In this document: positions 2,304 to 63,742 of the stretch, in pieces
How the letters are laid out: every line of letters begins with the position of its first letter
Position numbering within the stretch: position 1 is the first letter of the stretch
DNA from: a virus
Taxonomy: Duplodnaviria; Caudoviricetes
Length of the DNA: 64,000 bases
Strand: one strand, 5' to 3'
IMG/VR virus record: IMGVR_UViG_3300044471_000009
Coordinates: 1-64,000 of that record
Made by a program: the position numbers and the translations under genes
The notes under the pieces: generated by a model
Database searches by the model: none
What the model was told of the DNA's origin: nothing
Seen by the model: only the letters and a program-made list of their open reading frames with translations

Positions 2304-2559
2304 AAACCGAAAAACCGCAAGCTGAAGGCATCCGGCAGGGATTGCAGGAGGCGTGGCTTTTACTCGATAAAGGAAGAGGCTATGCGGAACTGCAAGGATG
2401 GACAGCTTGTCAGTGAAATTGAGCTGAAGATTTGTATTGGCCCGCCAGTGCTTTAGATATGGCTTTGCCGCTCACCAATTAACCGCAACCTACTTTGTGG
2501 CTCATTGATTTGATTTCGTGAGCCACAGGATTTTGATTGACAGCCAAGGAAGATGGAAA

Positions 2560-3138
2560 ATGGGACTCGAACACTTCAAACGTTTCACCAGCACAGACAA
2601 GAGTTTTGTTCCGATGGTTTCGATATGGAACAAGGGGCAACTCTGGGTCGGCTCCGGGGCAGTGAATAAGTTCGATCTGGATCGCTTCACGCATGTCGTG
2701 TTTCTCTACGATGAAACGGCAAGAGAAATTGGGCTGCTTTTCAGAGGAAACGACAAGGAAGAAGGAACCATCAAACTCGGCAAACGCCAGACGGGAATAG
2801 TCGTAGGAGCCAAGAATTTTCTTGATTGCTTCAATATCGATTATTCGCAGACAAAACAGTACCTGATGCGTGTTGAGCAGGAGCCTGATTTGTTTGTCAT
2901 CAGCTTGGACAAAGGGAAAATCAGCACAAAAAGCAAAGGAGAGCCTGATGAGGCCGCGCCAGAGCGCAAGGCGGAAATCCTGAAGGTGGTGCGGGTGATG
3001 CGGAGAAAGCCGCGCAACGGCGGCAGGCCGTCCAGCTATCAGGCCATAGCCGACCGTCTCAACGCCGAAGGAATGCCGCCGCTCAAGGGCGGGGAATGGT
3101 CATGGCAAAAAGTGCGAGGATTTCTAAAGAGAGCTTGA
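2560..3138 (+). CDS. Hypothetical protein with C-terminal serine-recombinase-type DNA-binding ('Recombinase') helix region
   Basis: SYQAIADRLNAEGMPPLKGGEWSWQKV resembles the recombinase-domain motif; no catalytic resolvase domain. Confidence 0.6.
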   Translation: MGLEHFKRFTSTDKSFVPMVSIWNKGQLWVGSGAVNKFDLDRFTHVVFLYDETAREIGLLFRGNDKEEGTIKLGKRQTGIVVGAKNFLDCFNIDYSQTKQYLMRVEQEPDLFVISLDKGKISTKSKGEPDEAAPERKAEILKVVRVMRRKPRNGGRPSSYQAIADRLNAEGMPPLKGGEWSWQKVRGFLKRA

Positions 3139-3295: not shown

Positions 3296-3598
3296 TTAGT
3301 TGCCATAGTGAATACCCCTGCTTGCCTCTAAATCGGCAAAATCAATGCGTCGCTGTTCTGCCTGCTCAAGTATGCGCTGCGCAATCTTGCAGGCCTGGCT
3401 GTAGTCAATGTTCGCTGGCCGCCCCGTCTCTTCGCAATACTCAAGGTACCGCTCCACAGCCTCCTTAAACGCTGTTTCCAGCTCTTCCAGTGATTCACCT
3501 TCGTAGGTTATCAAGTCACGGATAAAGGCAATCTGGCCGTGATAGCAGCCGTCCTCGAAGCTATATTCTGATGTTCCGGTGTATCCTTTATGTCTCAT
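3296..3598 (-). CDS. hicB: HicB-like antitoxin domain without C-terminal DNA-binding domain
   Basis: YHGQIAFIRDLITYEGESLEELETAFKEAVERYLEYCEETGR matches the HicB N-terminal domain; no hicA adjacent. Confidence 0.8.
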   Translation of the reverse strand: MRHKGYTGTSEYSFEDGCYHGQIAFIRDLITYEGESLEELETAFKEAVERYLEYCEETGRPANIDYSQACKIAQRILEQAEQRRIDFADLEASRGIHYGN

Positions 3599-3604
3599 TT
3601 GAAA

Positions 3605-4009
3605 TCATCTGTAATTCTTCGATAACGAGATTGCATCGAGAGCGGCAACGCCATTGAAAAAAACCTCGTCGTATCTCGGCGGAACAGGTGTTATCTTGCT
3701 CTTGTTCCGCTCCTTCTTCACTTCCATCCGTTCCCTGAATCGCTTCCGAAAAGCCTCGTACTTCAGCTCTTTGCGCAGGAATTTGATTTCTTCCGGCAGC
3801 AGCAGTGCTTTCCGGCTCCGGCATATTTCCAGACCAATCAGTTTATGCAGCTTCTCCGGGGCTGGAATGGCCGCGTATTCCTCGCCGCAGGAGCCGCAGC
3901 GGTATTGGGTGATGCCCAGCAAAAGCACGGGCAAACCGCATTCTGTGTATTCGTAGGGCTTGTCCTTGATGACCTCAAGAGCGTTGCCGCAAACATAGCA
4001 TTTTTCCAT
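3605..4009 (-). CDS. mqsA: MqsA/YgiT-type zinc-finger antitoxin-like protein, HTH truncated
   Basis: CYVCG...CGLPVLLLGITQYRCGSCGE Zn domain, then LLPEEIKFLRKEL (first HTH helix), after which similarity is lost. Confidence 0.75.
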   Translation of the reverse strand: MEKCYVCGNALEVIKDKPYEYTECGLPVLLLGITQYRCGSCGEEYAAIPAPEKLHKLIGLEICRSRKALLLPEEIKFLRKELKYEAFRKRFRERMEVKKERNKSKITPVPPRYDEVFFNGVAALDAISLSKNYR

Positions 4010-4054
4010 TGTGCCGCCTCAATTTTCAGGTTTCTATCTTTTTGTTTTTAATAA

Positions 4055-4341: not shown

Positions 4342-4417
4342 TGGTGCTCCTGGAGGGATTTGAACCCCCAACCGTCCGGTTATGAGCCAGCGGCTCTGCC
4401 AGTTGAGCTACAGGAGC
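4342..4417 (-). tRNA. tRNA with CAU anticodon (elongator Met or Ile2)
   Basis: GCTCCTG/CAGGAGC acceptor, CT-CAT-AA loop, TTCAAAT T-loop, encoded CCA. Confidence 0.9.
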
Positions 4418-4418
4418 T

Positions 4419-4494
4419 TGGCGGCCCCGGAGAGAATCGAACTCCCAACCTACGCGATAGGAGCGCGATGCTCTATCCTTTGAGCTACGGGGCC
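4419..4494 (-). tRNA. tRNA-Arg(CCU)
   Basis: Canonical cloverleaf, CT-CCT-AT loop, encoded CCA. Confidence 0.9.
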
Positions 4495-4760
4495 GTGATT
4501 GACTTGTAGTGCATTGCCGGATCATATTCAGTTATCTGCGCAGGATCAACGCAATACCAATTCACAGTTTTGTGAGATTTTGACCACACAATTTCTAACT
4601 CTTCGTTATTGCGGCACTTAAACAGACCGCCCACTCTCCACATCATGCCACCGTACAACTTGGCATGATGCCGTATCCATGATTCTGCATGGCTCTTTTT
4701 GTTCCATGAGAGGCCATCAACAATAGAACCATCTTTTCTTTTCAATGAATATCGTGCCAT
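4485..4760 (-). CDS. Hypothetical protein inside the tRNA cluster
   Basis: ORF track; stop codon overlaps the 5' end of tRNA-Arg. Confidence 0.5.
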   Translation of the reverse strand: MARYSLKRKDGSIVDGLSWNKKSHAESWIRHHAKLYGGMMWRVGGLFKCRNNEELEIVWSKSHKTVNWYCVDPAQITEYDPAMHYKSITAP

Positions 4761-4817
4761 GATAATAGAAATTGCAGGCATTTCACCTGCCGGGCTGCTA
4801 TTTCAAGCCATGTTCAC

Positions 4818-4892
4818 TGGCGACCCGTGGCGGAATTGAACCGCCGTTTCTGCCTTGAAAGGGCAGCGTCTTTACCACTTGACGAACGGGCC
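4818..4892 (-). tRNA. tRNA-Glu(UUC)
   Basis: CTGCC-CTTTCAA-GGCAG anticodon arm, canonical D and T arms, CCA. Confidence 0.95.
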
Positions 4893-4896
4893 TTAA

Positions 4897-4966
4897 ATCT
4901 CTCCAGCCCGGAATTGAACCAGGTTCTTGCGCAAGGCAAACCATCGCTCTTTTGAGCTACTGGAGG
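4897..4966 (-). pseudogene. tRNA-like element (D-arm and T-arm, scrambled anticodon arm)
   Basis: CTCCAG/CTGGAG acceptor, GCTC-AAAA-GAGC D-arm, CCTGG-TTCAATT-CCGGG T-arm. Confidence 0.55.
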
Positions 4967-5181
4967 TGTTTTAAAGATACCAATCATCGGTGAGTGTAGC
5001 CGAAATTTATCTTCAAGCTTCCTCAATCCCACCATTAAAGAAGATAAAGACAACCCCCGCCTGGATTAGACCATCCGCCCGCCGCACTCGTATTAGTTTT
5101 ACTGGACGATGATTGATAAACTGCTTCAAGTAACCGGCTTTGGTGCGCAGTTCTGCGAGATGCGTTGCCGGTGTTATTCAT

Positions 5182-5264
5182 TGGCTGGCCCGGCAGGAAT
5201 CGAACCTGCGTTAGGGTGTTTGCTGATCAGTGGCCACCCCAGCCTTCCACTTGGCTACAGGCCA
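5182..5264 (-). ncRNA. tRNA-Gln-like RNA with a 16-nt anticodon loop
   Basis: TGGCCTG/CGGGCCA acceptor plus GCCA end, GCC-AAGTGGA-AGGC D-arm, GCAGG-TTCGATT-CCTGC T-arm; loop GCCACTGATCAGCAAA. Confidence 0.7.
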
Positions 5265-5272
5265 ATATTTCT

Positions 5273-5356
5273 CAAATTCGCCCCTCGGCAGGATTCCGCC
5301 TGCGCGTTTGTCGGACTGGCCGTCCGTGCCATTTGTCTCACTTGAGTTACCGCAAA
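5273..5356 (-). pseudogene. Highly degenerate tRNA-like element
   Basis: TA-ACTC-AAGT-GAG D-like arm, CGGAC/GTCCG hairpin, GCAGG-CGGAAT-CCTGC T-like arm. Confidence 0.3.
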
Positions 5357-5414
5357 GTTATTGCCTTGCGGACATATCATGCGGTATCGCAGCCGCACTC
5401 CCTTCGCGCCTGCA

Positions 5415-5525
5415 CTCGGCAAACGATCAGGAATCGAACCTGACCTACTTGGGGTGAATGACGAGACTTCAACTCGAACCTCTCAGGTTCACAGCATTGA
5501 TGCTCTACCATTGAGCTATTCCCGC
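5415..5525 (-). ncRNA. tRNA-like element with a hairpin inserted in the anticodon loop and a long variable region
   Basis: GCGGGAATAGCTCAATGGTAGAGCA 5' half; TCAAT/GTTGA stem around a 22-nt loop; TCAGG-TTCGATT-CCTGA T-arm. Confidence 0.5.
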
Positions 5526-5540
5526 AAACTCCATTGCTTT

Positions 5541-5831
5541 CTACCGAAAACCCCGCTTTCCTGTTATTTCATCAAGCATACGCTGCCGGTTTGCGTCGGC
5601 TTCGCTGCCACTGCCAGCTACAGCATTAAGCATGACAGGAATAACCAATATCAATGATTCAACAGGGAAGAGGCCATGATCAACAACCCCTTCGTCGTTG
5701 AGCCATTCACATTTGAAGTTGCCGTCTGGACGCTTCTCAATGGCCGTCACCTTCATCTCCGGGCCGCCAGATTTCAGTCTAACGGTATCGCCAACCTGAA
5801 CCGCAACCGGACCTTCTGTTTTAAAGATCAT
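5541..5831 (-). CDS. YodC/DUF2158-like small beta protein
   Basis: VGDTVRLKSGGPEMKVTAI...CEW motif. Confidence 0.8.
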   Translation of the reverse strand: MIFKTEGPVAVQVGDTVRLKSGGPEMKVTAIEKRPDGNFKCEWLNDEGVVDHGLFPVESLILVIPVMLNAVAGSGSEADANRQRMLDEITGKRGFR

Positions 5832-5868
5832 TTCCACGTTTGCTTTCCTCTTGACTTTAAACGCTAAT

Positions 5869-6072
5869 CTAAAGCGAATCAATGAAAGGCGCGACTACCA
5901 ACATGCAACACAGAAATTCACTCCCCAGGCACGTCCAGTCTTGGGTGAACCATACGTAGCTTGCGGCCTGACCTGCACTTGGAGTGAACAAGCCTTCAAT
6001 AGCCATATTCTGGCCACTGGCATTGAGCCTGACTACATCTCCAGCTTTCATCTCTGCTTCATTCAAAGCCAT
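5869..6072 (-). CDS. Second, divergent YodC/DUF2158-like protein
   Basis: MKAGDVVRLNASGQNMAI...VWF. Confidence 0.6.
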   Translation of the reverse strand: MALNEAEMKAGDVVRLNASGQNMAIEGLFTPSAGQAASYVWFTQDWTCLGSEFLCCMLVVAPFIDSL

Positions 6073-6113
6073 CGCTTTCCCTCTCGGAAAAGAGATATTT
6101 GCCAACTAAAAAA

Positions 6114-6199
6114 TGGCGGAGGAAGTAGGATTCGAACCCACGGTGCTTTCGCACAACGGTTTTCAAGACCGCCGCCTTCAACCGCTCGGCCATTCCTCC
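6114..6199 (-). tRNA. tRNA-Ser(UGA)
   Basis: Class II tRNA: GCGGT-CTTGAAA-ACCGT anticodon arm, long variable arm, CCA. Confidence 0.95.
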
Positions 6200-6713: not shown

Positions 6714-7023
6714 ACTGGACACTACTATAGAAAGAGATATAAGAAAGAGATATAACCACCTTCCCCCTTTGTCCCCCAGAGGGGGAAGGCGATGGACTTA
6801 GAGAGCCTGACTCAGAGGATGATTTCGCCGAACCGGACGACTCTGAGGAAGACCGGCCCTTCTGATGCTCAAGAAAGCACGGAAAGGGGCATAGAATCAA
6901 TTTGCTCACCTTGGCTGGTATGGTTTTACGTTTAGAGCGAGAAAGCGATTTAAAGGCCATTTCTGACGTTTTTAAGGATTGGGCTGGAGTTGACGGGTGC
7001 TGATGGATAAAACGCATGGCTGT

Positions 7024-7180
7024 TTGCTTTTTGCTTTACAGGATGGGTAGAATCTGGTAAAGTGATTGTGACACCTTCTGGCCGGGGGTGCAAAACCTGA
7101 TAACCCCAGAACATCGAATCAAGCACCCAATCAGGTGTGTACCCGGCCAAGAGTACCGGTTCGATGTTTTGGGGTTTTTT
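7024..7180 (+). promoter_or_regulatory. Putative promoter plus branched leader terminator
   Basis: TTGCTT-18-TAGAAT (7024-7053); 17-bp stem 7102-7118/7160-7176 enclosing two small hairpins, then a U-tract. Confidence 0.6.
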
Positions 7181-7199
7181 ATTTTATGGAGGGATGGTT

Positions 7200-7970
7200 A
7201 TGAATTTCGAAGAGCTGAAGAACCTTAGAAGCTGCTTGATTGACTGCAACAAAATCGAAGAACTTGATGATATTTTTTTAAGCGCAATCAAGTCAGGCAG
7301 CAAGTTTTTATCCGACGCTCCATACGTCGGGACTAGCTGGAGAGAGATTGACGAATATGTGGTTCCTATTGGCGACTACTCGGCCTTCTTTGCGGATATA
7401 TCAAGCCACCAGGAGCTTGTTGACATTGTTAGAGAGATGGCAATTTCAAAAATTGCTCCTCGCTTGGAGCAGCAATTTTTATCTGGCTCCGATTCTTGCT
7501 ATGCGTTTACGTCAATGCTGAAAGCATCAACTGAACGTGAGCTTTGCGTCGAAAAACCAGAGATTGATTCTTCGCTATGCGTCAGTCATCTTGTAGAAAT
7601 ATCAGCCTCGGTTAATGGCAGGGTTGATTTCGTTGTAATGAGCAGTGATACGCTTGCAAAAACTGGATTTTCAATACCAGATGTCAGTGTTTTTGTAAAC
7701 GAATACGCAGGAGATTCCGTGTACGCCGGGCTGTGGCTTGACAGCACCTCCGCAGAAAACGGAGTCATAGTCACATGCCCAACAATCAGGGGTGTGACTA
7801 TGAAGTATAGCCGTAAAAAATACTCTCTACAGCGCGGAATATTAGGGCTTTCCGCTGATTCTGGAGCAGTCCTTTGCAAGGAAAAAGGGATCGGAACGGC
7901 CTTGTATGTTAAGGCATATTTAGGTTTTTTCGTCAAGGGCAGCGGTGTTTTCCGTATGGACGGATTCTGA
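7200..7970 (+). CDS. Divergent paralogue of the major capsid protein, outside the head module
   Basis: FVNEYAGDSVYAGLW...FRMDGF closely matches 21774-22478 (FENAFAGDSVYAGKW...FRMDGF) and aligns to the capsid gene (VDFYVASG, SMYAGVW, RLPGI). Confidence 0.75.
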   Translation: MNFEELKNLRSCLIDCNKIEELDDIFLSAIKSGSKFLSDAPYVGTSWREIDEYVVPIGDYSAFFADISSHQELVDIVREMAISKIAPRLEQQFLSGSDSCYAFTSMLKASTERELCVEKPEIDSSLCVSHLVEISASVNGRVDFVVMSSDTLAKTGFSIPDVSVFVNEYAGDSVYAGLWLDSTSAENGVIVTCPTIRGVTMKYSRKKYSLQRGILGLSADSGAVLCKEKGIGTALYVKAYLGFFVKGSGVFRMDGF

Positions 7971-15372: not shown

Positions 15373-15459
15373 TATTTCGTGTGTCGCATGGCTAAAAAAA
15401 AAATACATTTCTGTGATTTTTCCCTCGACAACCGGTCGTTTTGTTGCTATTTTACAAAT

Positions 15460-15957
15460 ATGGAAATCATACACAAGAAAGTTGCCGACCTGATACCTTA
15501 CGCCGGGAATCCGCGCAAGAACGACCACGCCGTTGCGCCTGCCGCTGCGATAATCAAGCGGTTTGGGTTTCGGGTTCCGTTGCTTATCAAGAGCGATGAC
15601 GAAGTTATAGACGGTCATTTGCGCCTGAAAGCTGCCGTTAAGCTGGGCTACGATGAGGTTCCTTGCATTATCGTAGATGACATGTCGGATAATGACATCC
15701 GTGCGTTGCGAATCAGTGTGAACAAGCTCGCAGAGAAGGCTGATTGGGATGATGAACTGCTGAAACTTGAACTTGATGAGCTGGAGCTGGCGGGGATTTC
15801 TCTCGAAGAAATCGGGTTTGAGGTTGGCGAGGCAGGCGAGTTGCCCATAGAAGACGAGAAAGCCAACTCGCCGGAAGATTTCAAGGAAGTTGATGAGGGT
15901 ATTGAGACCAATCATGAATGCCCGAAATGCGGGTATCGGTGGAGCGGCGGAAAGTGA
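15460..15957 (+). CDS. ParB/Srx N-terminal domain protein with C-terminal CPKC
   Basis: LIPYAGNPRKND...IKRFGFRVPLLI...VIDGHLRLKAA. Confidence 0.9.
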   Translation: MEIIHKKVADLIPYAGNPRKNDHAVAPAAAIIKRFGFRVPLLIKSDDEVIDGHLRLKAAVKLGYDEVPCIIVDDMSDNDIRALRISVNKLAEKADWDDELLKLELDELELAGISLEEIGFEVGEAGELPIEDEKANSPEDFKEVDEGIETNHECPKCGYRWSGGK

Positions 15958-15997: not shown

Positions 15998-17299
15998 ATG
16001 ATAAGGATTGTGCGAAGCGGCACCGGGTTGCAGGCTCACGGGTCAAGAACAATCCTCCAGCCTTGCCCTACGATTATGGCCGGAGGATTGGGAGGCGGAA
16101 ACTGCTCTCAATACTGGCTGGAAGATGATGGAATGCAGATGCCGATAGAAAAAAATAATAAGCCTGAATACCGCGTTCTAAGCATGGATGAAATTCGCGC
16201 TTTGCCGTGGAACGGGTTCAATGCCGTCTCGACATTCAGTGGATGCGGCGGGTCGTCGACTGGCTACAGAATGGCCGGTTTTCGCGTCCTGTGGGCATCT
16301 GAGTTTATAGATGCAGCAAGGGATTCGTATCGGGCAAACAAGGCCGACTACACCATTCTTGACGGGCGCGATATTCGGCAGGTCACCGCCTCTGAAATCC
16401 TCTCAGCTATCAAAATGCAGCCGGGAGAACTTGACTTGTTCGACGGCAGCCCGCCTTGCGCATCGTTCTCAACCGCTGGAAAACGTGAGGCCGGATGGGG
16501 CAAGGTTAAGAAATATAGTGACAAGTCCCAGCGAACCGATGATTTATTTTTTGAATACGCAAGGCTGATCAAAGGGATTCAGCCTAAAACATTCGTTGCC
16601 GAGAACGTGAGCGGCCTTGTCAAGGGGACAGCAAAGGGATACTTCCTTGAAATACTGGCCGCGCTGAAGGCTTGCGGCTATAAGGTATCGTGCCGTGTTC
16701 TTGATGCTCAGTGGCTTGGAGTGCCGCAATCAAGGCAGCGAACCATCTTTGTTGGTGTTCGTGAAGACTTAGGCGTTGACCCGGCGCACCCGAAGCCGCT
16801 GCCGTATCGCTACAGTGTGCGTGATGCATTGCCGTGGATTGTAGCTGTTGGCGACAACGGGGGATTTGGAAAAGGGGCTATGCGTTCGGCTGAATCAGCA
16901 GCGTCGGCGACAATCGGAGCAAGCCCGCAAACAGGGAACGGCAAGTTCCCGCCTTCGCTGGTCGAGGCTGTGATTTATGACATTGGAGGCTCGTTTGCGT
17001 CGGCGCAGCCTATCACGAACGCCCCGTGTCCGACTGTGTGTTGCGAAACCTCGCAATCCCATTATCTTGTTCGTGGAAAAGGAGATAAAGATACTTTTAC
17101 AGCTCATGCGCCTGACGGGGTAGAACGCCGCAAATTCACCATCGCTGAACTCAAGCGCATTTGCGGCTTCCCGGATGATTTTATCCTGACTGGAACCTAC
17201 GCTCAGCAATGGGAGCGCCTTGGCCGTGCCGTCCCTCCTGTCATGATGTCACATATTGCGGCGACTGTTAGAGATGAGATGTTGAGGATGTTGAAGTGA
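15998..17299 (+). CDS. C5-cytosine DNA methyltransferase-fold enzyme with Arg in motif X (predicted carboxymethyltransferase)
   Basis: Motif I FSGCGG, IV GSPPCASFS, VI AENVSGL, VIII PQSRQR; motif X is LGRAVPP instead of GN[AS]V. Confidence 0.9.
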   Translation: MIRIVRSGTGLQAHGSRTILQPCPTIMAGGLGGGNCSQYWLEDDGMQMPIEKNNKPEYRVLSMDEIRALPWNGFNAVSTFSGCGGSSTGYRMAGFRVLWASEFIDAARDSYRANKADYTILDGRDIRQVTASEILSAIKMQPGELDLFDGSPPCASFSTAGKREAGWGKVKKYSDKSQRTDDLFFEYARLIKGIQPKTFVAENVSGLVKGTAKGYFLEILAALKACGYKVSCRVLDAQWLGVPQSRQRTIFVGVREDLGVDPAHPKPLPYRYSVRDALPWIVAVGDNGGFGKGAMRSAESAASATIGASPQTGNGKFPPSLVEAVIYDIGGSFASAQPITNAPCPTVCCETSQSHYLVRGKGDKDTFTAHAPDGVERRKFTIAELKRICGFPDDFILTGTYAQQWERLGRAVPPVMMSHIAATVRDEMLRMLK

Positions 17300-18108
17300 C
17301 ACTGGCGACTGATTTTAGAAATGTATTCGTTCGTGCGGTAGGTCAAGATGCCAAGCATTCTCTTTTTCTTTCTGGCGGAGTTGACAGCGCAACAATCCTT
17401 GCGGCGCAGCTTCACCTTGGAAACAAACCTGATTGCTACTCCTTTAGATTCGGAGATTATCCATCTGAAGACAATCTTGTGGCAAGACAGATGGCTGCTG
17501 CGTTTGGCCTTCGATATGTCGAGGTCGCTGTTCGTCGAACAGCGGAAGCTATGATTGCTGACGCAAAGGAAGCTATCGCGCTTGGTGGGAGTTATTTAAA
17601 AACACATGTTCATGTAGGAATCCCGTTTCTTTACCTCTGCCGGGCGTTAAAGGGTGATGGTGTAGATGCAGCTCTCTTTGGAATGGCGGCTGATGATCTA
17701 TGGGGGTCAGGAAGACACGCAAGAATTGCCGCATCAAGGGGGCCTGATGAATTTCGCAAATTTAGACTGAATAAAATAACCGACACATCGCAGTCAGATT
17801 TTTCTGTCCTACGTCTTGCATCCAGTCTTGGAATTTCTCTTTATGATCCATACAGAAACAATGATGTAATAAAGCTGATGCTTAATGCTGGTTTCAATGA
17901 AATGCACAAGCCGCGTGACAAAGCACTCGCGCTTTCTGCGTTTCCTGAGTTTTGGCAGCATGGCAAATGGTATCGTCCAAATAAATCACTGCAAGTTGTG
18001 TCTGGAATCCGTGCTGCACATGATACGCTGCTGAAAGACCCTGCTATCAATACCGGCAGGCATCGCGCCATAGTAGGTCTGTACCATAAGCTGGCGAATC
18101 ATCTATGA
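17296..18108 (+). CDS. Asparagine-synthetase-like ATP-dependent amide ligase (synthetase domain only)
   Basis: PP-loop LFLSGGVDS; LFGMAADDLWG (cf. GEGADELFGG); no Ntn glutaminase domain. Confidence 0.8.
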   Translation: MTLATDFRNVFVRAVGQDAKHSLFLSGGVDSATILAAQLHLGNKPDCYSFRFGDYPSEDNLVARQMAAAFGLRYVEVAVRRTAEAMIADAKEAIALGGSYLKTHVHVGIPFLYLCRALKGDGVDAALFGMAADDLWGSGRHARIAASRGPDEFRKFRLNKITDTSQSDFSVLRLASSLGISLYDPYRNNDVIKLMLNAGFNEMHKPRDKALALSAFPEFWQHGKWYRPNKSLQVVSGIRAAHDTLLKDPAINTGRHRAIVGLYHKLANHL

Positions 18109-18782
18109 ACGAGACAACCTTTAGCATCCCTGCCGACTGGACATTCAACCGCCCGGACATAGCAGCAGGGTTTGACAAGCATGTCCGGGAGCAGCTTCCT
18201 TGGTATGATTTAGCCACAGGAGCGGTTGCGCATATAGCCAGGCACTTCCTTCCTGAAAACGGGCTGATTTACGACATAGGGGCCAGCACCGGCAATATCG
18301 GGGAAGCGTTGGGAGACAGCATTGCAAGCCGCAATGCGCGTATGGTTGCCGTGGAGAAGTCTGCCGAGATGGTTGCCTGTTATCGCGGGCCGGGTGAATG
18401 CGTCGAGGCTGATGCGTTGACCTTTGATTTTCAGCCGTGCGACGTATGTGTCTGCTTTCTGGTTTTGATGTTTATTCCTGTCTCGGAGCGGGCCGCCTTG
18501 GTGGAAAAGCTCGTGAAGTCTGTCCGGCCCGGCGGCGCACTTATTATCTTCGATAAGACTGAATATCGGGGCGGCTACCTGTCAACCGTGATGCACAGGC
18601 TGACGATAGCAGGAAAAGTGGCTACAGGATGCGACCCTTCTCAGATAATCAGGAAGGAGTTGAGCCTGTCTGGGACACAGAGGCCGCTGTCTGTCGATTT
18701 CATTGAAGGATTTGACCCGAAAATGATTGAGGTTTTTCGTTTTGGTGAATTTGCTGGGTGGATTATAGAAAAACATGCCTGA
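18105..18782 (+). CDS. cmoA: CmoA-like carboxy-SAM synthase / class I SAM-binding protein
   Basis: WTFNRPDIAAGFDKHVREQLPWYD and IYDIGASTG resemble CmoA (WTFD..VA..F..M..RS.PGY, VYDLGCS.G); FLVLMF; PGGALIIFDK. Confidence 0.8.
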   Translation: MNETTFSIPADWTFNRPDIAAGFDKHVREQLPWYDLATGAVAHIARHFLPENGLIYDIGASTGNIGEALGDSIASRNARMVAVEKSAEMVACYRGPGECVEADALTFDFQPCDVCVCFLVLMFIPVSERAALVEKLVKSVRPGGALIIFDKTEYRGGYLSTVMHRLTIAGKVATGCDPSQIIRKELSLSGTQRPLSVDFIEGFDPKMIEVFRFGEFAGWIIEKHA

Positions 18783-52416: not shown

Positions 52417-53502
52417 TCATTCATTTCCAAACACCTCCGGCCACCGCTTTGCAAACTCTTCCCGCAGCGGAATCATCACTTCGCGCATGGATGGCTCTGC
52501 CGCCTTTGAGCAGCGCAGCTTGAAGATGTGTCGCCACTGCTCTAAATTGGCGTAAATAATGAGTTCCGTCTTGCAAGAATTGGGCAGCACGGTACGGGCT
52601 TCCTGTGGGCTTGCGCCGTAACCTATCATTGTCAGGTACGCTTTCTCAGTCGACCTGCACTGGTTATACCATGCCCAATACCTCTCTGTATATGTATCTT
52701 CTTGATTCAAATGCCTCCACTGCGGACAATCTTTGGCAAAATTGTACTCTTCTTTCTTAGTGTCGCAGGGCCTTTCGACGCATAGGTTACATGGCTGCGA
52801 GGATTCAGGAAGAAACGCACTCGGCCTAATAAAAGTTACTTCATTGCCGAATTTCCCAGAGGCATAATTGCAGTAACGTTGTGAGGTTTGCAATATAGCC
52901 ATAGCTCTGTGGCGACAAATCTCGTGGCTTATTGCGCGATTTACAATGAACTTGACCGCGATGTGGCGGTGCTTGGCCAGCAAGTCCGCAGGCAGCCGCT
53001 CCACCTCTTCCAGAGGCACTTTGCGGACAGTTATGCTGGACATGATCAATTTGCATTCCAGCGTGATGTCATCAAAGAAATACGGGTGTTGCTTGCGGAG
53101 CAGTGCGCAGGCAGCCAAAACTACGCCGCACTGCTCCGGGTCACCGATTAACATCTCTCGCCATGCCCGGATGCTGCCAGTAATCAGCATCCGAACCCTG
53201 TCCGCGCCAGACGACCTATCTTCATTTGGCGTAACTTTAGAAAGCTGAAGATATTTAGGAATCGTTTCGAGAAAATCGAAATAATCCCAAGAGTCACAAT
53301 TGACCTCCAGTGTCACAACGCCCATTTCTAAAACCGAATTGTGGCCGCTTTTAATCGCCTTCTCGACAAACGGCAAGGCCGACTCCGGCGTGATGCGGTC
53401 TTCGCTCTTGTAGCAGATGCGCCCGCAATGCTCGATGCGAACGGGAAGGCTCTGCTGGTCGAGATGGTCAAGAATTTCAAAGGATGCAGGAACTATCTTC
53501 AT
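52417..53502 (-). CDS. thyX: FAD-dependent thymidylate synthase
   Basis: EHCGRICYKSE, GHNSVLE, RHR-x7-S (RHRAMAILQTSQRY), EARTVLPN. Confidence 0.95.
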   Translation of the reverse strand: MKIVPASFEILDHLDQQSLPVRIEHCGRICYKSEDRITPESALPFVEKAIKSGHNSVLEMGVVTLEVNCDSWDYFDFLETIPKYLQLSKVTPNEDRSSGADRVRMLITGSIRAWREMLIGDPEQCGVVLAACALLRKQHPYFFDDITLECKLIMSSITVRKVPLEEVERLPADLLAKHRHIAVKFIVNRAISHEICRHRAMAILQTSQRYCNYASGKFGNEVTFIRPSAFLPESSQPCNLCVERPCDTKKEEYNFAKDCPQWRHLNQEDTYTERYWAWYNQCRSTEKAYLTMIGYGASPQEARTVLPNSCKTELIIYANLEQWRHIFKLRCSKAAEPSMREVMIPLREEFAKRWPEVFGNE

Positions 53503-58483: not shown

Positions 58484-60406
58484 TTAAGTTTTTTTAAAGA
58501 AAAGTTTACTCGCATTGCAACCGCTTGAAACTCCGTTGATTTGCACACGCTTTGGCGCAGAAATAACCAGCTCCCGCGCCGCTCTCGTGACCGCAACATA
58601 TCCAAGCCGATACAGCTCTTGCATCCCGGCTTGATCTTCATCGCCACGCGGCCAAATACCTTCAACCGCGCCGATCAGGAAGACGTATTTATATTCCAAG
58701 CCCTTAACTGAATGGACAGTTGAAACGACAACTTTTTCGGCAGCCTCTTCTTCGCTCGCTGAATGCTCAAGGCTGATCGCGTCAAGAAAAGCGGTCAGCG
58801 AATCATATCTGCCTGCCGCTTCGCAAAGCTGCTCAAGGTCTTTGATGCGCCTATCCGCAGCATCGTACCGGTTTGCTGCAATCAGCTTGAGCCATTCTGC
58901 CGCAGCACGCACTATCTCCTGCACTAACTGCCTATCATCATCTGCGACTAAAAACATCTCTATTAACGCAGAAACAAGGGCTTCTCCGATATGTTTATTC
59001 TCACCTTTCGGCTCATATCTGCATATTCCAAACCATCCAGATTTAACTTCTTTTTGCAATGACTCTGAATACTGAGTAAATGCAGATATTACCTTTTCCG
59101 TCCCTTTCGTCCCGTCTCCAAGTCCACACTTTGCAGGGATAGAAAATACCCTGCGCCACGCCGCAATATCCCCGGCATCTGCTATGCGCACCCTCACAAA
59201 CGCCGCGAGGTCTTTTACGCATTGCATTTTAGCTAACTGCATACCGCCGAGTTTGATAAAGCCTATCCGCCGCTCGGAAAGCCGCATTTCGACATGCCTC
59301 GAATACACCCCGCTTTTTGACATGACGCAAATTTGCTCCGGGTCAACGCCGCTACCGATCAAATCTGAAATTCTACGAACAACCTGCTCTGCTTCATCTT
59401 CGTCGCTCCATGGCCTCCAATATTCCGGCTCTTTGCCTGATGTGCCGGAGCGCAGGCTCTTTGGCCTGCCGACCCCGGCATGAACTGAAAGCTCATTGGC
59501 GAGCGCAAGAATCTGATCGGTGGAGCGGTAGTTTTGATCGAGGGTGAACAGCAACGCGCCGGGGAACATCTTGCTGAAGTTGATGATCGAGCTGACCTCC
59601 GCCCCTCGAAACGCATAGATGCTTTGGCACGGGTCGCCCACCGCGTAAATCATTGCGCCCATTCCAGCCAAGGCAAGCAAGATATCTGTCTGCGTCTGAT
59701 TAACGTCCTGATACTCATCAACCAGCACACGCGCCGGTATTTCATCAGCTTTCAGCAATCCAGACCGCAGCAGCAACAGCAGGAAGTCCAGTAAATCATC
59801 AAAATCAAGCTCGCCAGTTTCGCGCTTCCCTGCCCGATACTGCTCCGCCACGGCTTCAGCAATCTCGGCGCATTTCTTGGCAACTATCTGGCCGACTGGA
59901 ACACGGCGATTTGCTGATGCTGAAATCGCCTCTTGCAGCTTATTCGCTGTCGGCAGCTCTGCCGCCTCGTCTTCCGGCAGTGTTTTGACAATTTTCTTGA
60001 TGCGGGAAACAGCTTCCGATGTGTCAATAATTCCGCGCATTTCCGGCATCCACGCTGCCGCCGCTGTTTCTTCCGCGATCAGCTCTGCGCCGGAATCAAC
60101 CTTGGCCTTCAGCGTGACGGCAGCTTGCCGAATGAGCCGTGCTGCGAGCGAATGGAATGTTCCTGCCGCTCCAACCTTGTTTGCAAGCGGATGCTGGCTG
60201 GAAGCCCGCTTAACCATATCTCCGCCAGCAAGGTTGGTAAAAGTCAAGAGCCAAATCTTTCCCGGCTCAATTCCGCTGTCGAGCAGACGGACAAGCCGGG
60301 CCGCGATGACAGAAGTCTTGCCTGTGCCTGCGCCTGAATCGACAAGGGCGTGGCGATTCATGGAGCATGAGACCGCTGCGAGCTGCTCGGCGTTAAGGTT
60401 GTACAT
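58484..60406 (-). CDS. uvrD: UvrD/REP (SF1A) helicase
   Basis: SGAGTGKT, LTFTNLA, TFHSL, VDEYQD, VGDPCQSIYAFRGA, NYRST, TVHSVKGLE, VAVTRA. Confidence 0.97.
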   Translation of the reverse strand: MYNLNAEQLAAVSCSMNRHALVDSGAGTGKTSVIAARLVRLLDSGIEPGKIWLLTFTNLAGGDMVKRASSQHPLANKVGAAGTFHSLAARLIRQAAVTLKAKVDSGAELIAEETAAAAWMPEMRGIIDTSEAVSRIKKIVKTLPEDEAAELPTANKLQEAISASANRRVPVGQIVAKKCAEIAEAVAEQYRAGKRETGELDFDDLLDFLLLLLRSGLLKADEIPARVLVDEYQDVNQTQTDILLALAGMGAMIYAVGDPCQSIYAFRGAEVSSIINFSKMFPGALLFTLDQNYRSTDQILALANELSVHAGVGRPKSLRSGTSGKEPEYWRPWSDEDEAEQVVRRISDLIGSGVDPEQICVMSKSGVYSRHVEMRLSERRIGFIKLGGMQLAKMQCVKDLAAFVRVRIADAGDIAAWRRVFSIPAKCGLGDGTKGTEKVISAFTQYSESLQKEVKSGWFGICRYEPKGENKHIGEALVSALIEMFLVADDDRQLVQEIVRAAAEWLKLIAANRYDAADRRIKDLEQLCEAAGRYDSLTAFLDAISLEHSASEEEAAEKVVVSTVHSVKGLEYKYVFLIGAVEGIWPRGDEDQAGMQELYRLGYVAVTRAARELVISAPKRVQINGVSSGCNASKLFFKKT

Positions 60407-62440: not shown

Positions 62441-63742
62441 TCACCAAGGCCCAAAAATTGTTCTTTCATGATAGAAGGTTGCAAATACAGTTCCGGTAGG
62501 CCCGTCCTTCTGCTTTGCGACTATTATTTCAGTCCTGCGTTTTTCTATGTCATCGGTTATATTTTTGTTATAAACAGAATCCCTGTAAAGAAAGAGAATA
62601 ACGCTTGCATCCTGCTCTATCTGTCCGCTCTCCCTCAGATCAGACATATTCGGACGCTTGTCAACCCTTTCCTCTACCTTGCGACTTAACTGCGAAAGAG
62701 CTATAACGCAAACGCCAAGCTCTTTCGCAAGAATCTGTAAGCCTCTGCTTACCTCGCTCACTTCCTCATATCTATTTTTTGACTTTTCGGTTGACGCAAG
62801 CTGCAAATAGTCAACAAATAGTATGTCAAGCCCGTGTTTGTCTTTTAACATCCTTGCCCTGCTCTTTATCTGCTCTATGGAAAGACCAGGGGTTTCGTCT
62901 ATCCATATTTTTTTATTTGCAGATTCCATGCAAGCCTTATCTATCTCGCCGCTCTTGCCATGTACCCGCCCAGCTCTCAAGTCATGCAGTCCAATGCCGG
63001 ACAAGCTGGCCAGCACCCTTGTAGCTAAACTTACAGCCGTTGTTTCAAGGGAAAAGAAACCAACCTTCCCTCCAGATGCCAAGGCCATTGTCATTGCCAA
63101 GGCGGTCTTCCCTATGCTCGGTCTCGCCGCAAGGATAACAAGTGATCCCGGAACAAGCCCTGATGTCATTTTATCGAGAACCGGAATGCCGGACGGAAGC
63201 CCAATAATTCCGCTTGGATTTTTAGATGCCTCTAAAATACGTTCCTTGGCATCAATAGACGCATCTCCGAGCGTAACCCAACTGGATACCGTCCCCGTGG
63301 AAAGAATGCGCCTAATGTCATTCTCGTGCTGCTGACAAGCATCGTGGTCTCCAGCCATGATGCGATGGTATGTTGAGGCGCATTTTTCGGCTATTGCCCG
63401 CGAAACCGCTTTCTCCCGGATAATCCCAGCATGATGCACCAACATTCCCGTGAACGGAATAACATCGGTAAGTTGCGTCACATATACAACCCCGCCAGCC
63501 TTTTCCAGCTTTCCGTGATCTCTCAGCCAGTCAGTTACGGAAACTAAATCATGCGGGCGATTACTCCGCGAGAGAGCTATTGCCGCCTCAAAGATTAGCT
63601 TATGGCGGTCTGAATAGAAATCTTCCGCTGCAAGCAGCCCCTCTATTTTGCTCATTGCCTTGTCATTAATCAGCAACGTTCCAAGAAGCGTCGCCTCGGC
63701 CTGAAAGTTATTAGGCTTGGCATCTTTACTGTTGTTCATCAT
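62441..63742 (-). CDS. dnaB: Replicative DNA helicase
   Basis: AARPSIGKT, FSLE, VDYLQL, LSQLSR, DLRESGQIEQDA, KQKDG. Confidence 0.97.
   Translation of the reverse strand: MMNNSKDAKPNNFQAEATLLGTLLINDKAMSKIEGLLAAEDFYSDRHKLIFEAAIALSRSNRPHDLVSVTDWLRDHGKLEKAGGVVYVTQLTDVIPFTGMLVHHAGIIREKAVSRAIAEKCASTYHRIMAGDHDACQQHENDIRRILSTGTVSSWVTLGDASIDAKERILEASKNPSGIIGLPSGIPVLDKMTSGLVPGSLVILAARPSIGKTALAMTMALASGGKVGFFSLETTAVSLATRVLASLSGIGLHDLRAGRVHGKSGEIDKACMESANKKIWIDETPGLSIEQIKSRARMLKDKHGLDILFVDYLQLASTEKSKNRYEEVSEVSRGLQILAKELGVCVIALSQLSRKVEERVDKRPNMSDLRESGQIEQDASVILFLYRDSVYNKNITDDIEKRRTEIIVAKQKDGPTGTVFATFYHERTIFGPW

Follow-up and report, generated by a model that had tools for sequence, protein, structure and literature searches.

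Recent work on Synechococcus phage S-B43 described a DNA modification pathway in which CmoA makes carboxy-S-adenosylmethionine (carboxy-SAM, Cx-SAM), CmoX makes 5-carboxymethylcytosine (5cxmC) at GC sites in double-stranded DNA, and CmoY, a ligase without a glutaminase, ligates glycine with adenosine triphosphate (ATP) to give 5-glycylcarboxymethylcytosine, a base that the native phage DNA contains (Yang et al., Nat Commun 2025, PMC12783734). This CmoA-CmoX-CmoY system, published in December 2025, came with a survey of phage contigs that yielded 5,615 CmoX, 4,257 CmoA, 2,251 ligase and 1,660 ParBc protein candidates, with a ParBc protein on many of the CmoX contigs; the ligases fell into several similarity clusters, one of them glutaminase-fused and a predicted ammonia user, and others having 'distinct active site residues' (PMC12783734). 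Here we compare with this system a gene at positions 17296 to 18108 of a 64,000-nucleotide stretch of DNA (hereafter the window, the whole stretch that was analysed), which forms positions 1 to 64,000 of the virus record IMGVR_UViG_3300044471_000009. We interpret this gene, with good confidence, as encoding a CmoY-type DNA 5cxmC amide ligase in a complete ParB-CmoX-CmoY-CmoA cassette. The pathway having already been published, the window cassette is a further member, from another uncultured phage lineage. Its genes and the ligase motifs referred to throughout are as follows.

15379 to 15957, plus strand: ParB-N (ParBc) domain protein encoded at the head of the cassette (phrog_620 ParB-like, E-value 5.8e-46; Pfam ParB_N weak at 5e-4)
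15998 to 17299, plus strand: candidate CmoX-type DNA cytosine-C5 carboxymethyltransferase, 433 amino acids (Pfam DNA_methylase, 3.5e-52)
17296 to 18108, plus strand: candidate CmoY-type ATP-dependent, adenosine monophosphate-forming amide ligase, 270 amino acids, GTG start
17371 to 17388, plus strand: PP-loop SGGVDS, the ATP pyrophosphatase motif, aligning with AsnB SGGLDS
17680 to 17706, plus strand: GMAADDLWG, counterpart of the AsnB SGEGSDEVFG segment by profile alignment to 1CT9
17905 to 17985, plus strand: HKPRDK...WYRPNK, conserved C-terminal family motifs, by conservation and AsnB alignment
18105 to 18782, plus strand: candidate CmoA-like carboxy-SAM synthase, 225 amino acids (TIGR00740 at 7e-17, below cutoff; phrog_4752, 2.6e-50)

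The S-B43 ligase, SpCmoY (UniProt A0A514ABJ0), is like the window ligase a synthetase-only AsnB homologue, with 271 versus 270 amino acids, and the two can be aligned end to end (BLASTP, 28% identity over 240 residues, E-value 9e-24), while a tblastn search from the window ligase finds S-B43 at 2e-16. Common to both proteins are the PP-loop, D59, D89, K102-T-H, R157, K209, Q233 and N252, and both genes adjoin CmoX and CmoA genes, although the order differs between ParB-X-Y-A before the terminase in the window and A-Y-X in S-B43. Three features mark the window ligase as CmoY-type, namely an AsnB-type synthetase domain standing alone, homology to SpCmoY over the full length, and CmoX and CmoA neighbors, and a 100%-supported split places it outside the SpCmoY clade itself (see below). 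The initial annotation of this gene had proposed a glutaminase-less ligase working on carboxymethylcytosine DNA with an amine not derived from glutamine, a proposal in keeping with both the SpCmoY biochemistry (PMC12783734) and the gene context.

The four cassette genes are co-directional in the order ParB-CmoX-CmoY-CmoA and are directly followed by the terminase genes, small and large, and the start/stop overlaps between CmoX and CmoY (GTGA) and between CmoY and CmoA (ATGA) are those of translationally coupled genes. For the CmoX-type protein, the best solved structure was SpCmoX (8YF3, E-value 4.2e-64, 37% identity), a match forty orders of magnitude above any ordinary methyltransferase (M.HaeIII, 7.8e-24). 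This protein carries SPPC at nucleotides 16448 to 16459 and LGRAVPP at nucleotides 17219 to 17239, and within the latter its Arg410, at a motif X position where ordinary enzymes have Asn, aligns with SpCmoX Arg350, which contacts the carboxyl of carboxy-SAM (Yang et al., PMC12783734). The CmoA-like protein is 22% identical to SpCmoA, and its three best solved structures are all CmoA (4GEK at 1.3e-14, 4IWN and 1IM8), with the next matches at 1e-4.

Turning to the ligase itself, Pfam Asn_synthase matches at an E-value of 8.5e-16 (59 bits versus a cutoff of 21) and covers only the start of the synthetase domain, while a profile built from 35 relatives aligns residues 207 to 451 of Escherichia coli AsnB (1CT9), which make up the synthetase domain (E-value 3.4e-15). 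For the AlphaFold2 model (predicted local distance difference test, pLDDT, 96.9; predicted template-modeling score, pTM, 0.93), the top Foldseek matches came from AsnB, human ASNS, beta-lactam synthetase and the carbapenam synthetase CarA, in each case from the synthetase domain, with query template-modeling scores of at most 0.81 (AsnB 1CT9), and the fold of the model corresponds only to the C-terminal domain of AsnB. The N-terminus of the protein is the start of the synthetase domain and the gene directly upstream is the C5-methyltransferase, and no Pfam GATase_7 glutaminase was found across the complete 89,967-bp virus record. The same holds for length in the wider family, as nearly all of the best 150 relatives, from 1.84 billion representatives searched, have 255 to 300 amino acids. 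The synthetase-only protein that the initial annotation had recognized is thus borne out, and the four motifs it quoted are all present, with SGGVDS at residues 26-31, GMAADDLWG at residues 129-137, HKPRDK at residues 204-209 and WYRPNK at residues 225-230. The open reading frame (ORF) is a real gene under purifying selection, since the ratio of nonsynonymous to synonymous substitution rates (dN/dS) is 0.13 when it is compared with its 90%-identical counterpart on L040, a contig of 68 kb from a metagenome.

Conservation and alignment to AsnB point to an intact adenylating site. Apart from V, which is nearly so, every residue of SGGVDS is invariant across 35 relatives, and in 170 relatives the motif is 94-99% conserved. 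Profile alignment to 1CT9 equates G129 with G347, M130 with E348, D133 with D351 and G137 with G355, such that AsnB Glu348 has become Met in the window ligase and Ile in SpCmoY. Both C-terminal motifs are family-wide, with the consensus HKPxQK and FPEFW..G.WYR, and K209 is invariant in the 170 relatives and aligns with AsnB Lys429, whereas R227 is R or K in nearly all of them and aligns at AsnB Arg447, two residues before Lys449. In the AsnB and beta-lactam synthetase literature, these lysines bind ATP and pyrophosphate and stabilize the transition state. The initial annotation had seen in HKPRDK and WYRPNK a basic C-terminus fit for DNA binding, and the protein is indeed basic (isoelectric point ~9.5; 11 K/R versus 5 D/E in the final 70 amino acids), but as family-wide motifs the two are, judging from their sequence, evidence of a working adenylating site and not of a dedicated DNA-binding tail.

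The acyl-substrate side of the site departs from AsnB. In 1CT9 numbering, E348 is replaced by M130, D384 by S167 and R387 by S170, and the loop T321-T322-x-R324 by T103-H104-x-H106; E348, D384 and R387 are presumably the aspartate-site residues, and their replacement argues against asparagine synthesis. We rejected two family assignments. A glutamine-hydrolysing AsnB does not fit a protein with no N-terminal class-II glutaminase, with scores below the curated cutoffs (36.7 versus 267.1 bits for TIGR01536; 29.2 versus 499 bits for PRK09431) and with the aspartate-site residues replaced, and an assignment to QueC and 7-deazaguanine synthesis fails on its scores (Pfam, 18.5 versus 22 bits; TIGR00364, 19.9 versus 150), with only PP-loop residues 24-80 matching.

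By homology to S-B43, we would expect the cassette to hypermodify phage DNA, with the ligase as its last enzyme. The CmoA-like enzyme would convert S-adenosylmethionine (SAM) and prephenate to carboxy-SAM, from which the Arg-variant C5-methyltransferase (CmoX) would transfer a carboxymethyl group to C5 of cytosines in phage double-stranded DNA. With ATP, the ligase would then use its PP-loop to convert the base's 5-carboxymethyl group to an acyl-adenylate, and a free amine would attack this intermediate to form an amide. Because there is no glutaminase, that amine would be taken from solution as a small metabolite.

Related loci repeat this gene content. Across ~25 distinct loci with ligase relatives, a CmoA-like gene lies within 5 kb at nearly all, a C5-methyltransferase with SPPC and ER[LIVM]GR[AMS]VPP is found at most, and ParB is found at about half (seen in L004, L006, L016, L017, L040, L041, L042 and L153); a scan of metagenome contigs added almost no further loci. 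L040, which holds the 90%-identical ligase, has the same gene order as the window. One contig encodes an in-frame CmoY-CmoX fusion of 646 amino acids (P0078, L153:894-2834, with the frame open from 714) that is 34% identical to the window ligase, contains SGGVDS, SPPCASFS and ERIGRAVPP, and is placed between ParB and CmoA before a terminase, as in the window layout. If real, this fusion physically ties the ligase to a DNA-modifying enzyme, though it comes from a single Logan contig and could be an assembly or indel artefact.

No close relative was found among cultured phages, where the best matches were 25-28% identical (Yersinia phage fHe-Yen9-02, PaBG, Erwinia jumbo phages and S-B43), and a DNA-level search against cultured phages matched only short methyltransferase segments. 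Among 185,579 cellular species genomes there was likewise no close relative of the ligase, only weak PP-loop matches to AsnB-like genes with E-values of at least 1e-8.

Some of the related loci carry variations of their own. In L009 (5484-5720) and in L010 and L011 (6460-6696), the gene next after CmoA encodes a 78-amino-acid chorismate mutase (CM_2), in keeping with a role in providing prephenate for making carboxy-SAM, and the ligase of L009-L011 is paired with a longer methyltransferase (545-554 amino acids) of the GFPC and not the SPPC type. At L025 (4995-5333), all that is left of the ligase is a fragment of ~110 amino acids that matches residues 80-176 at 39% identity, flanked by ParB and CmoX genes closely related to the window's; possibly it is a decayed CmoY, leaving plain 5cxmC.

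A maximum-likelihood tree of 103 ligase relatives split with 100% support into an SpCmoY clade of 8 rows and a large clade of 95 rows, the latter containing the window ligase, its 90%-identical twin P0001, and P0045. Near-invariant in the large clade are Q106 (92/95), S167, S170, F219, W225, Y226, R239 (99% basic), H242 (97%) and Y263 (98%), whereas the SpCmoY clade has as its near-invariant residues E102 (all), G161, K143, K/R145, D147 (all), H224 (all), R251 and R253. Set side by side, the window clade and SpCmoY differ as Q/H106 versus E102, S167 versus G161, R239 versus D, H242 versus F, and Y263 versus A/C, and K143, H224, R251 and R253 of SpCmoY have no counterpart in the window ligase. 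AsnB R324, a residue of the substrate loop, corresponds to position 106/102 (Glu in the SpCmoY clade), and AsnB D384 corresponds to position 167/161, which presumably also matches beta-lactam synthetase E382. Residues 228-245 come after the conserved Lys and Arg, and by analogy with the AsnB family we take this segment to close over the active site.

Several observations count against assigning the gene to the CmoY type. The window ligase is only 28% identical to SpCmoY and lies across that 100%-supported split, the SpCmoY-clade residues E102, K143, D147, H224, R251 and R253 are not conserved in it, and its own residue 106 (17611-17613) is His where 92 of the 95 clade members, the 90% twin included, have Gln. 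The CmoA-like protein scores 61.9 bits versus the 193-bit NCBIfam equivalog cutoff (TIGR00740), and the record is an uncultured virus contig that is ~78% complete. Because of the 100%-supported split and the differing clade-invariant residues, glycine as the amine is, on the sequence comparison, not transferable by homology from SpCmoY to the window ligase. The initial annotation had suggested that the final base could be an undescribed amide; the system as such had already been published, but a new amide is possible given a ligase outside the SpCmoY clade whose clade-invariant residues differ.

With the gene read as a CmoY-type ligase, glycine or another small alpha-amino acid is the amine class that we favor, though tentatively and with less than even confidence. 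The narrower proposal, that the ligase is the functional equivalent of SpCmoY and uses glycine to give the already described base 5-glycylcarboxymethylcytosine, is plausible but falls short of probable. No amine other than glycine has been demonstrated for a member of the family (PMC12783734), the window ligase and SpCmoY agree in length, in domain and in the invariants listed above, and the window's phage has no amine-supplying gene, which fits an abundant host metabolite. The clade split and the six unkept SpCmoY-clade residues speak against glycine as well, as does the window clade's own set of Q106, R239, H242, Y263 and W225/Y226, with several of the differing residues at AsnB active-site counterparts (R324, D384, R387) or just past the conserved Lys/Arg. 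Furthermore, sister loci carry accessory genes that would have no target in a glycine amide.

These accessory genes bear on a second class of amines, the di- and polyamines (putrescine, spermidine) or basic amino acids (lysine, ornithine) that would leave a free amino group. Within the sister cassettes, L006/L007 have AdoMet_dc directly before CmoA (L006:4834-5202) and a ligase 44% identical to the window's, L016/L045 have an AdoMet_dc-spermidine synthase fusion and a second AdoMet_dc between CmoY and CmoA (L016:5852-6997 and 6999-7352), L042 has a spermidine-synthase-like gene (3333-4031) and L008 a SET-domain methyltransferase gene (3579-4013) between CmoX and CmoY, and in P0071 (L152:396-1634) a SET domain forms the N-terminal part of a fusion with a CmoY sharing 36% identity with the window ligase. 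None of these polyamine or SET accessory genes was seen in the SpCmoY-clade loci L001, L020, L021 and L023. An apparent AdoMet_dc-CmoA fusion in L016 was rejected, the two matches being in different reading frames and hence adjacent genes. The available portion of Yang et al. 2025 (PMC12783734) makes no mention of polyamine-type genes in cmoX/cmoY/cmoA cassettes, and that of a 2023 paper on polyamines in the virosphere (PMC9992855) makes no mention of DNA modification, asparagine synthase or cassette-embedded polyamine genes.

Since the sister accessory genes make or modify aliphatic primary amines and a glycine amide has no free amine, they hint at an amine with a free amino group, and the polyamine-type genes in the cassettes of three independent sister loci (L006, L016, L042) may point to polyamine amides of 5cxmC. 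For the window ligase such an amine is possible but unlikely; it would yield a cationic, undescribed cytosine amide that some of the sister phages would elaborate. The evidence on the other side is considerable, as the accessory genes occur in only ~5 of ~18 clade loci, a difference from the SpCmoY clade that falls short of statistical significance, and the ligases linked to polyamine genes, scattered on the tree, include no sister of the window ligase. All of the accessory enzymes are SAM-related, so their clustering with CmoA and CmoX may reflect SAM metabolism, and AdoMet_dc is a common phage gene by itself (PMC9992855), none of the 80 best viral AdoMet_dc loci having CmoX, CmoY or CmoA in the surrounding 5 kb. 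The spermidine-synthase-like protein of L042, used as a query, gave no matches. In the window's own virus record, AdoMet_dc, Spermine_synth, CM_2, CmoB and GATase_7 are all absent. Extended to its whole large uncultured clade, the proposal that these ligases attach putrescine, spermidine, lysine or ornithine in place of glycine is similarly doubtful.

AsnB-type synthetase domains can use free ammonia, and the window ligase would with this amine produce 5-carbamoylmethylcytosine, an outcome that we consider improbable. A second large cluster of CmoY-like ligases (the A0A7T0Q3R0 cluster) has the same synthetase domain and the same CmoX/CmoA context as the window ligase and carries an N-terminal class-II glutaminase predicted to supply glutamine-derived ammonia, whereas the window protein and its record are without one (PMC12783734 for the predicted ammonia use). 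The CmoY ORFs of 430-475 amino acids in L024 and L026-L029 may belong to this glutaminase-fused cluster. Ammonia-using phages appear to retain the glutaminase domain, the characterised glutaminase-less member takes glycine and not ammonia (PMC12783734), and free NH3 is scarce at physiological pH. The remaining probability lies with some other amine.

Least probable by far, and in our view barely credible, is that the ligase does not act on DNA at all and is instead an asparagine synthetase-like auxiliary metabolic enzyme, or a transfer RNA (tRNA) PP-loop enzyme with CmoA feeding a host CmoB for the phage tRNA-Ser(UGA), for although the phage has five tRNA genes including tRNA-Ser(UGA) and the protein has weak PP-loop-only QueC matches, it scores far below the AsnB and QueC cutoffs (36.7 versus 267 bits and 19.9 versus 150 bits), the presumed AsnB aspartate-site residues are replaced, the record has no CmoB, no close relative was found in the 185,579 cellular genomes, and the gene shows tight recurrent linkage to an Arg-variant DNA methyltransferase together with one in-frame fusion.

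Beyond the cassette, the surrounding record shows further features of this phage. A small-terminase-like helix-turn-helix gene begins 8 nt before the CmoA stop (window 18775-18782), an overlap that chains the modification and packaging genes together; the cassette-then-small-terminase order is also kept in L040, L006 and L153. The five tRNA genes lie on the minus strand at window 4342-6199 (Met-CAT, Arg-CCT, Glu-TTC, Ser-TGA and an unusual Ser with the anticodon ACT), and bacteria seldom have A34 anticodons besides Arg-ACG. Genes of the leftward arm specify a ThyX-type thymidylate synthase of 361 amino acids with two matched stretches (52417-53502, minus strand) as well as UvrD-type and DnaB-type helicases among 58484-60406 and 62441-63742 (both minus strand), and with these the phage has its own replication and deoxythymidine monophosphate genes. 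In the record beyond the window (G000) there is a radical SAM protein without a match to any specific family (L150:5183-6136, minus strand), and a 3'-phosphoadenosine-5'-phosphosulfate (PAPS)-reductase/DUF3440 protein followed by a second ParB-N-like protein (L151:1140-2381 and 2366-3022, both plus strand). The latter pair is reminiscent of IbrA/IbrB or DndC-like pairs and possibly constitutes a second module for DNA modification.

As it stands, the window gene confirms published work, and it extends the cassette to a tailed phage of medium genome size, at least 90 kb, where it is chained to the packaging genes. The window ligase also represents a large clade that is distinct from the sole characterised enzyme, SpCmoY. 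Work on this clade could bring to light a further natural DNA base and a ligase of new specificity for use in enzymatic DNA labelling. Were the amine one that keeps a free amino group, the product would be a cationic cytosine amide not previously described in DNA, one that the sister phages would elaborate with the spermidine-synthase-like, SAM-decarboxylase-like and SET enzymes of their cassettes.

Compared with known systems, AsnB (1CT9; TIGR01536), beta-lactam synthetase and carbapenam synthetase have the same fold over the whole of the window ligase, the same PP-loop and the conserved Lys. Acyl-adenylate chemistry would likewise be common to the AsnB family and the ligase, with the difference that the acyl substrate would be a DNA base for the ligase and is aspartate for AsnB. 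A second comparison is with thymidine hypermodification (alpha-putrescinylthymine, N-alpha-glycinylthymidine), which builds adducts on 5-hydroxymethyldeoxyuridine (5-hmdU) and presumably evades restriction. Like the CmoY route, these systems add an amino acid or amine after replication at a handle on pyrimidine C5 (PMC12783734). The handle itself differs, as in the CmoY route a carboxymethyl group is adenylated and becomes an amide, whereas in the thymidine systems a hydroxymethyl group is activated by pyrophosphorylation, and the enzymes of the two routes are unrelated.

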